From a phage, in the sequence record PZ445523.1: a stretch of DNA of 64,000 nt; one strand, given 5' to 3'. How positions within the stretch are numbered: the first letter of the stretch is position 1; the number at the start of each line of letters is the position of its first letter. Made by a program: the position numbers and the translations under genes. Of this stretch, positions 56,291-63,138 are shown one piece after another. The notes beneath the pieces are model-generated. The model had not been told where the DNA came from, did no database searches, and saw only the letters and a list, made by a program, of their open reading frames with translations.

Positions 56291-56653
56291 TTAAAAGAAT
56301 TTAAATTTTTTCTTTGACCTTTTATTAAATGCATCTTGTAGTTGCATTGTAATACATTTTTCTACATGAGGAGCTAACTCAGCTTTTCTTTCTTGGTCAA
56401 GAACAGCAAAGTCCATTACAACCTTTCCATCAACCCAATCCAGTTTTGTTACATACACTATATGTGTAGAACCATCTTCTAGTTTAATGACAATCTCCTG
56501 GATAACATTTTCCATAGCGGATTTAATTATCTTAAGAGATTCATTAAAAAGACGTTCTTTTCTTTCTTCTTCCCCCTCCGAAGAGGGGGATTCATCGATA
56601 ATTTCTAGATCTAAATCTAAATCATCTTTATTCATTAAATTCTTCCATATCAC
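56291..56653 (-). CDS. 40: head vertex assembly chaperone gp40
   Basis: 120 aa frame (likely start at MNKDD, 56635) between uvsX and 41. Confidence 0.6.
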   Translation of the reverse strand: MIWKNLMNKDDLDLDLEIIDESPSSEGEEERKERLFNESLKIIKSAMENVIQEIVIKLEDGSTHIVYVTKLDWVDGKVVMDFAVLDQERKAELAPHVEKCITMQLQDAFNKRSKKKFKFF

Positions 56654-57809
56654 TTAACTGTTCGAGGTCAGTTTCTAAATCAGCAGCTGATTTACTTTTA
56701 CTTTCTGGAGATTTAAATTTTTCAACCTTTGAGTTAATCAATTCATCGACTTCAGCCTCAACAATTTCATTACTATCAATAGCACCTAACTGATAAGCAC
56801 GTTTAATAGCATCTCGGAATGGTTGATGCTTAAATAAAGGACCCCAGAATGTAGTGCAGTTGGTATCTTTTGCACGCCAAGATTTTTCTTCGCGAATCAT
56901 CTCGCCGGTTTCTTCATCAAGAAATTCACGAGCATACCAACCATTCTTAGGTTTTACCACGAATCCTAATTCTAGAGCCATATCTAACAATCCAGAATAA
57001 GGATCGATACCACCGTCAAATTTAACATCAATAAAGAATTTACTTTTTTCTTTAACGGTACGAGATTTTTCTACATTTAGAACAAATTGATACCCCTGAA
57101 GATCAGAACCATCTTTAATCTGGCGCTTACCGATAATGAATACAGTATCAGCCGAATACATTACGCCTGTACCACCTGTCATCACGGTTTTACTAAACAT
57201 TTCAATGGTTTCAATTGTATGGTTAACCGCAACACATGGAATATTTTTAATGCTAAAATAAGGAGTAACAATACGGAATAATGACTTCAGTGATTTAGCA
57301 CGAGTCATATCTGCCACAGATTTTTCATTCAAGGCATCTTCCGTTTCTTTCTTAGAAGCCATATTACCAATTGAGTCGATGAATACAATAACCTTTTCAC
57401 CACGCTCAATAGCTTCAAGCTGATTCACCATATCAATTTTCAGTTGTTCAACTGACTGGATTGGCGTATGAATTACTCGTTCTGGGTCAACTCCCATGGA
57501 TCGCAAATAAGCTGGAGTAATACCAAATTCGCTATCATAGAATAGACAAACTGCATCAGGATATTTGTTCAAATACGCTGCAACCATAGTCAAAGACATA
57601 TTTGATTTAAAGTGTTTAGAAGGCCCTGCGAAAATAGTTAAACCAGACTGCATACCGCCATCAATCGCGCCAGAAATAGCAATATTAAGCATTGGGATTT
57701 TTGTACGGATTACATCCTTTTCATTAAAGAATTTAGATGTAGTCAGTTCAGCAGTCATTTTAGAAGTGGAAGCTTTAATCAAACGGGATTTTAAATCTGC
57801 AATAGACAT
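56628..57809 (-). CDS. uvsX: UvsX recombinase (RecA-like)
   Basis: 393 aa; near-identical in recalled stretches to T4 UvsX; Walker A GPSKHFKS. Confidence 0.95.
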   Translation of the reverse strand: MSIADLKSRLIKASTSKMTAELTTSKFFNEKDVIRTKIPMLNIAISGAIDGGMQSGLTIFAGPSKHFKSNMSLTMVAAYLNKYPDAVCLFYDSEFGITPAYLRSMGVDPERVIHTPIQSVEQLKIDMVNQLEAIERGEKVIVFIDSIGNMASKKETEDALNEKSVADMTRAKSLKSLFRIVTPYFSIKNIPCVAVNHTIETIEMFSKTVMTGGTGVMYSADTVFIIGKRQIKDGSDLQGYQFVLNVEKSRTVKEKSKFFIDVKFDGGIDPYSGLLDMALELGFVVKPKNGWYAREFLDEETGEMIREEKSWRAKDTNCTTFWGPLFKHQPFRDAIKRAYQLGAIDSNEIVEAEVDELINSKVEKFKSPESKSKSAADLETDLEQLSDMEEFNE

Positions 57810-57834
57810 TCATTTTTTCCATAGGCATCATTAT

Positions 57835-57895
57835 ATTTTCCTCACTGGTTAAAGATAGAGTAATTATAACACAATAAATTTAGGCATTAATCAAC
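57835..57895 (-). promoter_or_regulatory. MotA-type middle promoter for uvsX
   Basis: Minus strand AATGCCTAA (MotA-box-like), about 11 nt, TGTTATAAT extended -10 upstream of uvsX. Confidence 0.5.
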
Positions 57896-58735
57896 TGCTA
57901 TTGGATGAATAGCATTAAACTTATGAAATGCTTCTGATTTTTCTTTACGCGAAACACACATGCGAAGAACCTTTAGTGGTTCATCTTCTTCACCCAACGA
58001 TTTTCGTTTTTCAATATTCGATGTTTTCCAACGAGCTTGCTCTGGAAACTCTCTATTGATTTGTTCAAGCGCTCTATTATGTTTAGAATTACTACGAATT
58101 GAACTACACCCACCGGGAGCGTGTGATTTTCCAGATACAACCAGATATTTGAACAAGGCCAAATGCGGATAACCTTGATTAATTAAATTGAGAAATGCAT
58201 ACATATCTTCGCATAAATCAATTTTTCCGTACCCAATTTGTTCTGTGGTAAGTTTTCCGAGGTCATACCATGTATTCGTGAATCCATATGAATTTTCACG
58301 ATAATTACCCCAAGATGAAGTAATTTTAAAAATTGGTAAACGAGCATGACCATGATAATACCCGCAATCCATGGCATCCTCAACATATTGAATCAATTCA
58401 TAGAACTGTTCACGAGTCAATTGATTGACTTTATCTACACAACGCCGATCATCTCTTTTTCGCATTGAACTCATACGAATAGTAGTATCATCGTCAATCA
58501 TCCAGATTCGTTGACCTGCATACATATCAGTAATTGCTTTACGAGTTCCGGCAATTCCGTTTACATCATCAGGAATAGTTATAATTTTAGCTCTAGACCC
58601 ATAGGCATCATAATAAGCTTTTTCTTCGTGTTCACGCACTACAATATGTGGTTCATAATCAGTCGGAAACATATCAAGGGCAGAAACTGCCCCGACACGC
58701 TGATAGCTTGGAATTACGAATTGAATCATTTCCAC
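57887..58735 (-). CDS. DNA glucosyltransferase, GT-A-like with DxD motif (T2/T6 beta-alpha-gt type)
   Basis: 282 aa at the locus where T4 carries the 351 aa beta-gt; RIWMIDDDTT DxD motif. Confidence 0.6.
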   Translation of the reverse strand: MEMIQFVIPSYQRVGAVSALDMFPTDYEPHIVVREHEEKAYYDAYGSRAKIITIPDDVNGIAGTRKAITDMYAGQRIWMIDDDTTIRMSSMRKRDDRRCVDKVNQLTREQFYELIQYVEDAMDCGYYHGHARLPIFKITSSWGNYRENSYGFTNTWYDLGKLTTEQIGYGKIDLCEDMYAFLNLINQGYPHLALFKYLVVSGKSHAPGGCSSIRSNSKHNRALEQINREFPEQARWKTSNIEKRKSLGEEDEPLKVLRMCVSRKEKSEAFHKFNAIHPIAVD

Positions 58736-59466
58736 TCACCGTTATAATCTTTTTTCACAATATGAGTTTCGCCAGTATTCCACCAATGATCAACCAAGTA
58801 AAAATGACGAGAATATACATGAAGACTTCCAACATTCCATATAATAGAACCTGCTTTATACTGACGAGTTGAATCGCCTGCATTCAAATCAGATACTAAT
58901 TTATCTAATACGTATTTTTGCCATGCATAATCATTACGGAATCCGAAGACCACGTCATTTGAGCGCATGCTTACTACTGCATTGACTTTCTTATCACGAA
59001 TCAGGTACTGTACTGTATTAGTACACATGAAATCTGACATACCATCTTTATTGTAGTCAAATTGCATGGATGGACGAGTATAAATCATGATACCACGTCG
59101 AGAATCAGGATTTTGACCAAGTTCAGCTAAACACATATCATACTGAGCATAGTTATCTTCTGACCAGATAGCCCAACCATAATTCGAGTTAATTTCGCCT
59201 TTAGAAGATGCTACCTGCTGCCAAATCTTTGGTGTTTCACCTGGAATATCTTTAACAAACAAGCTTTTAGATTTATACCATTCAAGTTCACGCTGAATGT
59301 ATTCATCATTAAGAGCGCCAAAAATAAACGGTTCATCTGCTACAAATGATGCGCCAATAATTTCAATAGTTTTAACACCAGTTTTATCAACTACGAAATC
59401 TTTTTCTTTTAATGCAAGCCCCAAATGAAGACGGATTTCTTCAACTGTCATAGAGTCACTAATCAT
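58726..59466 (-). CDS. 42: dCMP hydroxymethylase
   Basis: 246 aa, same as T4 gp42; thymidylate-synthase-like fold. Confidence 0.92.
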   Translation of the reverse strand: MISDSMTVEEIRLHLGLALKEKDFVVDKTGVKTIEIIGASFVADEPFIFGALNDEYIQRELEWYKSKSLFVKDIPGETPKIWQQVASSKGEINSNYGWAIWSEDNYAQYDMCLAELGQNPDSRRGIMIYTRPSMQFDYNKDGMSDFMCTNTVQYLIRDKKVNAVVSMRSNDVVFGFRNDYAWQKYVLDKLVSDLNAGDSTRQYKAGSIIWNVGSLHVYSRHFYLVDHWWNTGETHIVKKDYNGEWK

Positions 59467-59619
59467 TTAAACCTCAATTGATACATTCATATTTAACTTG
59501 TAACAGTAATAAGCTCCAACCTAAAATAATAGTTGGAATCATAAGAGGAACCGTTACACTATAGTATATACTTATTATAATCATCAAGATTAAAAGCAAT
59601 GCTGCTATAATTTTGCTTT

Positions 59620-59871
59620 TCATTCCTTCTCTCTGATGATAATTACTTGATTTGGCTGTGCAGACTTTTTGGTTTCACCCGCAATTGACCAAATAAATGT
59701 AATAAACCAACCAATAATTGACCAGTTAAACAGTAAAGACGTGAAAAAGATTCCTACTGTCGATTTTGACCCACGCATCAAGGCGATAAACCATGGAAGC
59801 ATGTATATAATAATAGCCAACACACCTGAAACTAAAACCATAAAAATTGAACCTGCTACTAAAGTTTCCAT
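59620..59871 (-). CDS. imm: immunity (superinfection exclusion) membrane protein
   Basis: 83 aa, two TM helices; matches T4 Imm. Confidence 0.85.
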   Translation of the reverse strand: METLVAGSIFMVLVSGVLAIIIYMLPWFIALMRGSKSTVGIFFTSLLFNWSIIGWFITFIWSIAGETKKSAQPNQVIIIREKE

Positions 59872-59878
59872 GTTTTCC

Positions 59879-60259
59879 TCACTTAGTCAAATTTTTTACA
59901 CATGAATTATAAGAATTCACTACATACTCCATCGGAGCATTTTTACCTGTACGCCATTGGTAATTATTAGCCCAATTTGCCCAAAGTTCAGCGCAGTAGT
60001 TTTCAATTTTTTCTTCGCGTGTAATTACATCCGAATTACGATATGCTTGAGCAGATTCATCTGGACGAATAGCTTCGTCAAAATTCGCCTGCATTTGTTC
60101 TACTGTCTGTTTTGGAGCTTCTTTATAACACTTGACATTAGGATTATAAAATTTGCTTGAACAGTTTACAATTTTTCCTACATCAGACTGATTTACTACC
60201 GGTCCTTGAGCTACACAACCAGTAAGACCTAATGCAATAACCAAAATAGCGATTTTCAT
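59879..60259 (-). CDS. putative lipoprotein (imm.1 position)
   Basis: Start taken at MKIAILVIALGLTGC (lipobox); track ORF extension to 60370 reads through promoter repeat. Confidence 0.5.
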   Translation of the reverse strand: MKIAILVIALGLTGCVAQGPVVNQSDVGKIVNCSSKFYNPNVKCYKEAPKQTVEQMQANFDEAIRPDESAQAYRNSDVITREEKIENYCAELWANWANNYQWRTGKNAPMEYVVNSYNSCVKNLTK

Positions 60260-60284
60260 TTCATTCTCCAAATCCGTATCAGTT

Positions 60285-60323
60285 GATAGTTGTATAGTAC
60301 CACAGAGGAACAGTCTTGTAAAC
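60285..60323 (-). promoter_or_regulatory. phage early promoter (repeat family copy) upstream of imm.1/imm
   Basis: Minus strand GTTTAC (60323-60318), 18 nt, TGGTACTAT (60302-60294). Confidence 0.6.
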
Positions 60324-60402
60324 AGTTTTGTGAAAAAATTTTTTAATGAATTCAAAGGGTCCAGAATCATCTGTTTTTCATAAGTATAGATTTATATTAC
60401 TT

Positions 60403-60422
60403 GTATGAAAAAGGGACCCGGA
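60403..60422 (-). other. intercistronic hairpin between 43 and imm.1 promoter
   Basis: GGGACC-CGGA-GGTCCC. Confidence 0.45.
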
Positions 60423-60441
60423 GGTCCCTAGATTTATTCTA

Positions 60442-63138
60442 TCAGCCAAACAGGAAGTCTAACGAAGCTTTTTCTTCATAGTCCATACCAGCCGATTCAC
60501 ACATGCCTGCAAGCGGTTTAACAAACGATTTTTGGAACAAAGTTGAGTAGTCAATCCAAGACAGTACGTCAGAACGAATTTCCTTTGGAAGTTCTGTGCC
60601 CGACGGCCAAGCAATACACTTGTCACCAAATGGATTTCCTTCACGTAATGGAAGAACCATTACCTTATTTCCATCCAAAATTGGAGCTACACCCAGACCA
60701 CTAACAGCTCGACGATAAGTTAGCACACCACGAATATGGAACGGGCATTTAAATCCTGGCCAACCTTTATCATCATATTTCGCTATATCGTTCGCAGTTT
60801 TTACTTCAGCAATAACTTTATAGTCGAGTTGACGATATTCTTTCTCGAAGTTCTTGTAATATTCTTGGACAGACTCTTCACCTTCCTGAAGAATACGACG
60901 AATACTTTCTTCGAGAGCTTCTTGCACTGCCTTTGGTGTTGAACTCTGCTGAGTTTCCATACCCATGATTTTTAGATGCGGTTCAGCAAATCGCTTATCT
61001 TCCATATCATAAACGTTCAGAGCATAACGCTTTTTCGCTTTCCAAAATCCACCAACACCCTTTGAACCAAGCGGAGGGCAAGAAATAGCTTCACGGTCCA
61101 TATGCATCAGATGCTCGCGGTTATTCATATAATCACATAACTCACGATATGCAACATCAATCATAGGTTCCATCTTTTTCTTACCGAACTGATTCATGAA
61201 TTCAACCAAATCGTTCTGCTCTTTGAATCGGTCAAGACCTACTTTTTCAATAACTTTATCTACACAAACATATACCGAATCAGTATCACCTGCTGCGATG
61301 AAATCTTCATCATTAGTTCCGCATACTTTATTCAGATATTCATTAATTTTACGAGCAATCCACTGAATACCAACTTGGCCGAAAATTGTGATAGCAGTAG
61401 CATTTCGCAAATCATAGTAACGGAAATGAATATTACCAAGAGCACCATAAAGACTGTTAATGAGAATTTTACGGTTCAGCTGATTTGTATTAGCAAGTGT
61501 AGCCGCTTTTTCGCATTCCTCAATCAGACTATTGAGAACAGATTCAGTATAATTCGATAGTTCATTTAAGAAATCATCACTGAACTTAACATATCGTTCA
61601 ACTTCTGGTTTAGTTGAACAGGACCCTGCGCCTTTCATAATAATCTTTTTAATAGCTTCGGCATTCATTTCTTCAGCGAACATTTTCTTTTTCCAATCTT
61701 TACGCTGGAAAAATACTTTAGCGATTTCCTTTGGAATGATACCTTCTTGATGCTTATCATACATCCATCCATTCGGAGAACAAGAATATTCATCACTCGG
61801 TTTAGGAGCTGTTCCTGCGATATATTCATGAATTGGATGAACTTTAAACTGACCACGAATAGTCTCAGGACTAATGTTAACCTGACGAATAATGCTCGGA
61901 TACAGAGACGTCAAGTCAAAACTCATAATATATCGACGAGCAATTGGTTTAGGTTCAAATACAAATGCACCCGGAAAACTTTGTTTAACGTGCGAACCTT
62001 GTTGAGGAATAACCTTGTGTTCACCTTTCAATGAGTTAAAAATAATAGCATCCCAAGTTTTAATAGGACTCATTACACCAGAAAAAGGCATTTTAGCATA
62101 ATAAGACATACTTAAAACTAGATCGATAAACCCGCGAATTTTATCAATTGCTTGAACTGATTCTACGTCAATGATGTTATAACTAATGTATCGTTGATGA
62201 TTAGTCTCACGAAGTTTATTAATAGGACCGTCGTATGGTAATTTACCTTTTTTGGTTTCATGTTGAGCAACTGATTCCAAAGAGAATGACGGCAAATTAG
62301 TAAATGCGAACTTCTTGTACAAATCTAAATAATCAAGAATAGATACGCCATCAATAGAATAAATTTCTTTGCTACCGTACATATTTTGAATTAGTTTAGA
62401 TTTTACTCGACCGATTGGAGAGAAGCGTTTCATACTGCGTTCACCTAGAATCATTTTAACACGATTCATGATATACGGAACGTCAAATCCCTCAATATTC
62501 CAACCAGTAAAAATAGCAGGTCGTTTCTGTTCCCAGAGATTGATATATTCCATGAGCATATCACGCTCATTATCGAATGGCATATAAATTACTCGGTCAA
62601 GAATTTCTTGAGGAACTTCATCACCACCTTCACAGTCAAGCTTAGCAGCTAACTTTGCATCCCATTTTGATACTGAACCGTACATTGAATTCAAAAGGTC
62701 GAAAACATAAAAACGATCATCAATTGAATCGTAATGAGTGATAGCATCAATTTCATATTCTGCTTTCATTGGGTCAGGAAATTTATCACCGGTAACCTCA
62801 ATGTCACAGTTAGCTACACGAACAAATTTTCGGTCATAAACAATTTCTGAACCATATGTATCACTGATATAAGCGAGTTTAAAGTCGTTCATACCGAGAG
62901 CTTCGAGACCGATGTCTTCCATTCGCTTCATCCAATCTCGAGCATCTTTCATTGATGGAAATTTTTGAGGAGCGCAATTTTTACCATAAATGTCTTTGTA
63001 TTTTGACTCTTCCTTACAATGCCTAAACATAGTCGGAAGATATTCTACTTCACGAGTACGTTCCTTTCCGTTTTCATCAATATAACGTTCAACAATGTTA
63101 TTTCCGACTGTTTCGATAGAGATATAAAATTCTTTCAT
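60442..63138 (-). CDS. 43: DNA polymerase gp43 (family B)
   Basis: 898 aa, same as T4 gp43; exo motif NCDIEV, polymerase motif YGDTDS. Confidence 0.97.
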   Translation of the reverse strand: MKEFYISIETVGNNIVERYIDENGKERTREVEYLPTMFRHCKEESKYKDIYGKNCAPQKFPSMKDARDWMKRMEDIGLEALGMNDFKLAYISDTYGSEIVYDRKFVRVANCDIEVTGDKFPDPMKAEYEIDAITHYDSIDDRFYVFDLLNSMYGSVSKWDAKLAAKLDCEGGDEVPQEILDRVIYMPFDNERDMLMEYINLWEQKRPAIFTGWNIEGFDVPYIMNRVKMILGERSMKRFSPIGRVKSKLIQNMYGSKEIYSIDGVSILDYLDLYKKFAFTNLPSFSLESVAQHETKKGKLPYDGPINKLRETNHQRYISYNIIDVESVQAIDKIRGFIDLVLSMSYYAKMPFSGVMSPIKTWDAIIFNSLKGEHKVIPQQGSHVKQSFPGAFVFEPKPIARRYIMSFDLTSLYPSIIRQVNISPETIRGQFKVHPIHEYIAGTAPKPSDEYSCSPNGWMYDKHQEGIIPKEIAKVFFQRKDWKKKMFAEEMNAEAIKKIIMKGAGSCSTKPEVERYVKFSDDFLNELSNYTESVLNSLIEECEKAATLANTNQLNRKILINSLYGALGNIHFRYYDLRNATAITIFGQVGIQWIARKINEYLNKVCGTNDEDFIAAGDTDSVYVCVDKVIEKVGLDRFKEQNDLVEFMNQFGKKKMEPMIDVAYRELCDYMNNREHLMHMDREAISCPPLGSKGVGGFWKAKKRYALNVYDMEDKRFAEPHLKIMGMETQQSSTPKAVQEALEESIRRILQEGEESVQEYYKNFEKEYRQLDYKVIAEVKTANDIAKYDDKGWPGFKCPFHIRGVLTYRRAVSGLGVAPILDGNKVMVLPLREGNPFGDKCIAWPSGTELPKEIRSDVLSWIDYSTLFQKSFVKPLAGMCESAGMDYEEKASLDFLFG

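Follow-up and report, generated by a model that had tools for sequence, protein, structure and literature searches.

A T2/T6-type beta-glucosyl-HMC-alpha-glucosyltransferase gene between gene 42 and uvsX in a Tequatrovirus genome

The region between uvsX and gene 42 in the window (the whole 64,000-nt stretch of phage DNA analyzed here, PZ445523.1) contains an uninterrupted minus-strand open reading frame of 282 codons, 57887..58735 when counted from a GTG codon (GQRIWMIDDDTTIRM), which encodes the DxD-containing segment RIWMIDDDTT (Table 1). Frame, motif and flanking genes agree with the original prediction, made from the DNA letters alone, which further described the product as a 282 aa protein. 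The ORF does span 282 codons, but the protein itself is 280 aa long, because the ATG at 58729 is the start used by every annotated ortholog and overlaps the TGA stop of gene 42 as ATGA. On the minus strand the gene 42 junction reads ...GGT GAG TGG AAA TGA, placing a GGTGA sequence before the ATG. Annotated orthologs in T2 (AP018813 and MH751506), vB_Eco_EL, TB37 and EH2 all begin at this same ATG and measure 843 nt/280 aa, and the exact 280-aa product is already present in public assemblies, where the gene call also begins at the ATG, within a cluster of 485 members, the named ones being labeled beta-glucosyl-HMC-alpha-glucosyltransferase or glucosyl transferase. The ATG is thus almost certainly the true start. 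A start at the GTG (58735) was considered and rejected in favor of the ATG, since no Shine-Dalgarno sequence precedes it, and the two additional codons probably contribute no residues to this protein.

The upstream neighbor, gene 42, encodes a product identical to T4 gp42 at 239 of 247 positions, stop included, and the overlap between its stop codon and the downstream start suggests translational coupling of the two genes. The order gene 42, glucosyltransferase gene, uvsX is the same in T6, T2, EL, TB37 and EH2.

Table 1. Features of the gene 42-uvsX region, in window coordinates.
Feature	Position	Strand	Basis
g-gt (TAGT) coding sequence, 280 aa plus TAA stop	57887..58729	-	ORF, ATGA overlap, ortholog identity, Pfam, PHROG
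Two extra codons, GTG GAA, probably untranslated as part of g-gt	58730..58735	-	No Shine-Dalgarno before GTG; ortholog annotations begin at ATG
Gene 42, dCMP hydroxymethylase (hmC precursor)	58726..59466	-	Thymidylate-synthase family match
uvsX recombinase, downstream neighbor	56628..57809	-	PF21134 T4_UVSX_C and RecA
D79-D80-D81 codons, DxD metal/nucleotide-sugar motif	58487..58495	-	GAC GAT GAT at 58495-58487
R11 codon, N-terminal IPSYQR loop	58697..58699	-	R in 146/146 aligned relatives; His in both T2 records
E174-D175 codons (CED)	58205..58210	-	D in 148/148, E in 116/148 relatives
S202-H203 codons, sole residues differing from TB37/EH2 enzymes	58121..58126	-	Common to EL
Last 22 nt of g-gt (including TAA) and 3 nt beyond	57885..57909	-	24/25 identical to T4 NC_000866 24238-24262, E=3e-5

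Profile searches matched the protein to PHROG 842, 'beta-glucosyl-HMC-alpha-glucosyltransferase' (E=1e-88), and to the Pfam family PF20691, 'TET-associated glycosyltransferase' (E=2.2e-9), the latter with 38 bits against the curated gathering threshold of 27.5 bits used as cut-off, which is exceeded over the whole domain (residues 5-209 on profile positions 2-205 of 205). The original prediction had proposed a fit to the T2/T6 beta-1,6-glucosyl-alpha-glucose transferase, to be abandoned if the best homologues turned out to be unrelated glycosyltransferases. Direct comparison showed that the closest homologues are T2/T6-type enzymes, and that T2 and T6 carry theirs at the same locus between gene 42 and uvsX, with the same 4-nt overlap with gene 42 and the same DDD motif. 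We therefore regard the ORF, with a probability of about 0.93, as an ortholog of the T2/T6 beta-glucosyl-HMC-alpha-glucosyltransferase (g-gt; Pfam PF20691 TAGT), the second T-even DNA glucosyltransferase. This is a known gene in its usual place, representing the majority state among Tequatrovirus genomes, and nothing in the analysis contradicts its identification. Gene, product and locus are textbook knowledge that has been re-examined in 2026 papers, and the value of the window lies in correct annotation only.

At the level of alleles, the T2 enzyme, also 280 aa, differs from the window protein by four substitutions (R11H, S202A, H203Q and P251S; 276/280 identical) and the T6 enzyme by five (Y40N, D55G, R106H, S202A and H203Q), in addition to a lesion of its own that depends on the T6 record. 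The window protein thus has R11 and P251 where T2 has H11 and S251, Y40, D55 and R106 where T6 has N40, G55 and H106, and S202/H203 where both have A202/Q203. The enzymes of TB37 and EH2, two phages with measured DNA modification, show just two differences (S202A and H203Q), while the EL enzyme carries five substitutions but has S202/H203 in common with the window protein. A tblastn search of the whole window for the marker genes of the EL group, dam and the restriction-enzyme-like ORF, and for segA of T4, which has a dam gene as well, returned only chance matches; the EL markers are missing from the window. The window phage consequently matches neither measured group (TB37/EH2 or EL) exactly, because it has S202/H203 as EL does, without the other five EL substitutions and without the dam and restriction-like genes.

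Two features of the reference sequences came to light in this comparison. The g-gt of T2 has His at residue 11 in both independent records (AP018813 4283-5125 and MH751506 2286-3128), at the codon corresponding to window positions 58697-58699, and both records also carry P251S; the residue is Arg in 146 of 146 distant relatives and in all other T-even copies examined. The two T6 records carry different lesions, namely an amber codon at position 10 in MH550421 (4138-4980), where the gene is annotated from Met20, and a shortening of the invariant DDD to DD in AP018814 (2135-2974). These lesions, which reflect either differing stocks or sequencing errors, are odd in the phage with the highest gentiobiosyl level.

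The wider family provides a second line of comparison. The window protein has the PF20691 signature (IP[ST]xxR, DDD, ED, GG and R212), and the DDD motif, R11, D175, G206-G207 and R212, nearly invariant across 148 distant family members, are all intact. D79, D80 and D81 are kept in 146, 148 and 141 of these 148 members, respectively, and are invariant in a further alignment. The structure model, of medium quality and with loops 129-140 and 196-211 at pLDDT <50, predicts a GT-A-type fold: one Rossmann-like alpha/beta/alpha domain for nucleotide-sugar binding that resembles solved GT-A structures, with D79-D81 located where a predicted beta-strand (residues 74-79) ends. Conservation of the motif, its placement at a strand end and the GT-A-like model all accord with the earlier DxD reading. 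By analogy with the GT2 'ED' motif, D175 is a candidate base for catalysis by an inverting GT-A transferase. When the PDB was searched by sequence, no relative emerged (best match E=1.5, to an unrelated protein), and NCBIfam has no model for the protein. We propose that the enzyme is a DxD-dependent transferase of ~32 kDa with a GT-A fold.

This conservation also bears on whether the gene could be an inactive remnant or remain unexpressed. Lesions do occur in database copies, as the T6 amber (MH550421) and Asp loss (AP018814) illustrate, but the intact frame of the window gene, its complete set of invariant residues, the ATGA it shares with the essential gene upstream and the GGTGA preceding the ATG make such a remnant barely credible. 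Nor is the enzyme likely to act with a specificity other than that of T2/T6 g-gt, using another sugar donor or accepting beta-glucosylated or bare hmC. The family is indeed diverse as well as large: an exhaustive profile search recovered 2153 representatives at E<=1e-3 (a word-indexed homolog search had returned only 11 proteins), and most PF20691 members have <35% identity; TAGT homologs are found paired with either alpha-GT or beta-GT, and solitary distant TAGTs occur in 288 of 753 genomes (PMC13216743). The window protein, however, belongs to the small, experimentally anchored T-even subgroup, at the amino-acid level it is 98-99% identical to enzymes from phages whose products have been measured, its sole differences from the TB37/EH2 enzymes fall at a variable position, and the window holds no beta-gt. 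A divergent specificity is accordingly very improbable, and we retain the g-gt assignment.

Under that assignment, gp42 and the replisome would place 5-hydroxymethylcytosine in the DNA, an alpha-glucosyltransferase would then attach an alpha-linked glucose to hmC after replication, and g-gt, transcribed together with gene 42 and probably coupled to it in translation via the ATGA overlap, would use UDP-glucose to add another glucose, in beta linkage, to the 6-OH of the first, an inverting reaction yielding gentiobiosyl-hmC. Reaction and product are here those described in the literature for T2, T6 and near-identical phages. The present analysis itself shows that the gene is orthologous and syntenic, that its ORF and family-invariant residues are intact and that its product has a GT-A-like model. 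The same reaction is strongly favored, because residues 202-203 alone set the enzyme apart from those of TB37 and EH2, and this site varies across the family and is part of a loop modeled with low confidence.

The acceptor for this reaction depends on alpha-gt, which a tblastn search did not detect in the window, a stretch that ends short of the expected locus. In T4, T6, T2 and EL, alpha-gt lies between genes 47 and 55; the window terminates ~860 nt past the start of gene 43, with the alpha-gt locus expected ~9-10 kb further. A search with T6 alpha-gt identified 504 phage records, exactly as many as the g-gt records (475) and T4-type beta-gt records (29) combined, and the counts agree genus by genus. 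This equality supports the inference that the phage carries alpha-gt beyond the end of the window.

Published measurements on phages carrying both enzymes indicate the range of DNA products to be expected. T2 and T6 carry alpha-GT and g-gt, and gentiobiosyl-hmC amounts to ~5% of cytosines in T2 and ~72% in T6 (PMC13216743; PMC13390438; bioRxiv 10.64898/2026.02.25.707755), the T2 figure being one for which both PMC13390438 and bioRxiv 10.64898/2026.02.25.707755 cite older work. Deletion of g-gt in T6 leaves ~75% alpha-glucosyl-hmC (bioRxiv 10.64898/2026.02.25.707755). HPLC/MS of virion DNA from Tequatrovirus phages of the Durham collection revealed alpha-5-gentiobiosylmethyl-dC, the kind of glycosylation anticipated in the original prediction, and no beta-glucosyl form, with hmC:glc:gentiobiosyl ratios of ~1:2:2 in EL, BGP and Geo, and approximately one-third hmC and two-thirds gentiobiosyl form in TB37, EH2 and others; the authors credit the gentiobiosyl form to a TAGT 'at the position syntenic with' the T4 beta-GT (PMC13390438). 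From these data we infer a substantial gentiobiosyl-hmC fraction in the window phage, T6/TB37-like or EL-like and above the trace level of T2. The precise fraction is not predictable from sequence, because the second glucosylation differs ~14-fold between T2 and T6 despite nearly identical enzymes.

The low T2 value raises the question of whether the window phage carries a true g-gt ortholog that behaves as in T2, converting a few percent of sites and leaving DNA that is practically alpha-monoglucosylated. T2 provides the nearest protein among the classical phages, at four differences, and its DNA is only ~5% gentiobiosyl-hmC (PMC13390438; bioRxiv 10.64898/2026.02.25.707755). The window protein nonetheless lacks the T2-specific H11 and S251, having instead the invariant R11 (146/146) and P251, as TB37 and EH2 do, and all measured g-gt phages other than T2 have at least 40% gentiobiosyl-hmC (PMC13390438), so that a T2-like outcome is unlikely and a substantial gentiobiosyl fraction remains the preferred reading. 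R11H, together with P251S, may itself explain the low level in T2. A broader proposal, that g-gt alleles set the ratio of mono- to di-glucosylated hmC, with R11H/P251S giving the 5% of T2 and S202/H203 giving an EL-like intermediate pattern in the window phage, as opposed to that of T6/TB37, is rather doubtful but can be entertained; if true, a mixed modification state here could hedge against defenses specific for either form.

The presence of g-gt matters for host defense, since it decides between gentiobiosyl-hmC and the mixture of alpha- and beta-monoglucosyl-hmC found in T4, and hence which defenses can act. BapA is unable to remove glucose from gentiobiosyl-hmC (bioRxiv 10.64898/2026.02.25.707755), Brig1 is specific for alpha-glucosyl-hmC, and GmrSD-type enzymes still cut gentiobiosyl DNA (PMC13216743; PMC13390438). 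Modest leads also lie outside the window's own sequence: R11H in T2, the lesions in both T6 records and a relic of g-gt in T4.

To place the locus among known phages, we compared it with a phage collection by megablast. The g-gt gene is present at >=90% identity in 475 phage records (best 97.6%), mostly from Tequatrovirus phages of Escherichia, Shigella and Yersinia, whereas T4-type beta-gt is found in only 29, mostly T4 itself and RB55/RB59; the alpha-GT and beta-GT pair has been reported in just 6 of 753 genomes (PMC13216743). The 20-kb neighborhood of the gene shares ~97% identity with several Tequatrovirus genomes, among them fPS-65, RB18 and EL, and the collection contains no exact genome match (best 97.6% for the gene and ~97% over 20 kb). 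The source phage therefore belongs to Tequatrovirus and is absent from the collection. Database labels at this locus are muddled, as in records KM607002/KM607003 (RB55, RB59) and KM606994 etc. (RB3, RB5...): true beta-gt genes are called 'beta-glucosyl-HMC-alpha-glucosyl-transferase', g-gt genes are named 'b-gt', and many copies are labeled 'hypothetical protein'.

In T4, as originally stated, the corresponding slot holds the 351 aa beta-gt (1056 nt); in T4 a homing endonuclease gene, segA, also separates beta-gt from uvsX, a point the original prediction omitted. The two enzymes occupy the same position downstream of gene 42, use UDP-glucose as donor and form a beta linkage on phage DNA, but beta-gt has a GT-B fold and accepts bare hmC, whereas g-gt is GT-A and accepts alpha-glucosyl-hmC, and the two have no detectable sequence similarity. 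A tblastn search of the whole window revealed no homolog of T4 beta-gt (best E 1.5). When aligned, the window and T4 are homologous across uvsX (56600-57797) and, from 58744 onward, across gene 42 except for the 18 nt before its stop, the C-terminal residues of gp42 being VGKYA in T4 and NGEWK / KGEWK in the window phage and T6.

Between these homologous segments, T4 retains an isolated 25-nt block, immediately upstream of the segA start codon, that corresponds to the 3' end of g-gt (Table 1). Shuffled T4 sequence yielded at most 18/25 matches in 20 shuffles, compared with 24/25 for the relic, which would read ...VHRIAVD* where the window g-gt ends in IHPIAVD*. Apart from this block, T4 has no g-gt, and its locus contains no TAGT-like coding sequence. 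The description of g-gt as replacing beta-gt is hence right about the slot but T4-centric about the direction: g-gt is the common state (475 versus 29 records), and it is T4 that appears to have undergone replacement, because it keeps a relic of the g-gt 3' end. The simplest reading of the alignment is that a T4 ancestor carried g-gt until a beta-gt cassette took its place, segA being inserted alongside, which makes T4 the exception. Two 2026 papers on these glucosyltransferases make no mention of the relic. A further 15-nt block, TATCTTTAACC(A/G)GTG, is shared between window positions 57843-57857, in the spacer between g-gt and uvsX, and T4 NC_000866 24356-24370, where it lies just after the beta-gt stop, on the far side of the relic.

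In the accessory loci of the region between genes 56 and 61, the phage resembles T6 and TB37, unlike T4 and EL. A scan of positions 57600-60500 for sigma-70 promoters and terminators identified nothing specific to g-gt, and a hairpin inside the ORF (58693-58677), with a poor T-tail, is probably due to chance. T4 middle promoters combine a MotA box, TGCTTtA, with a -10 element. By eye, the 77-nt spacer before uvsX contains, on the minus strand at 57863-57886, TGCCTAA followed after 11 nt by TATAAT, which resembles such a promoter and is a candidate MotA-dependent middle promoter. Directly after the gene 43 stop, on the minus strand at 60412-60429 and 60383-60411, a T-tailed, G+C-rich hairpin precedes the promoter-like sequence TTTTCA-17-TATACT, a possible start for a tightly packed imm.1-imm-ORF49-42-g-gt unit.
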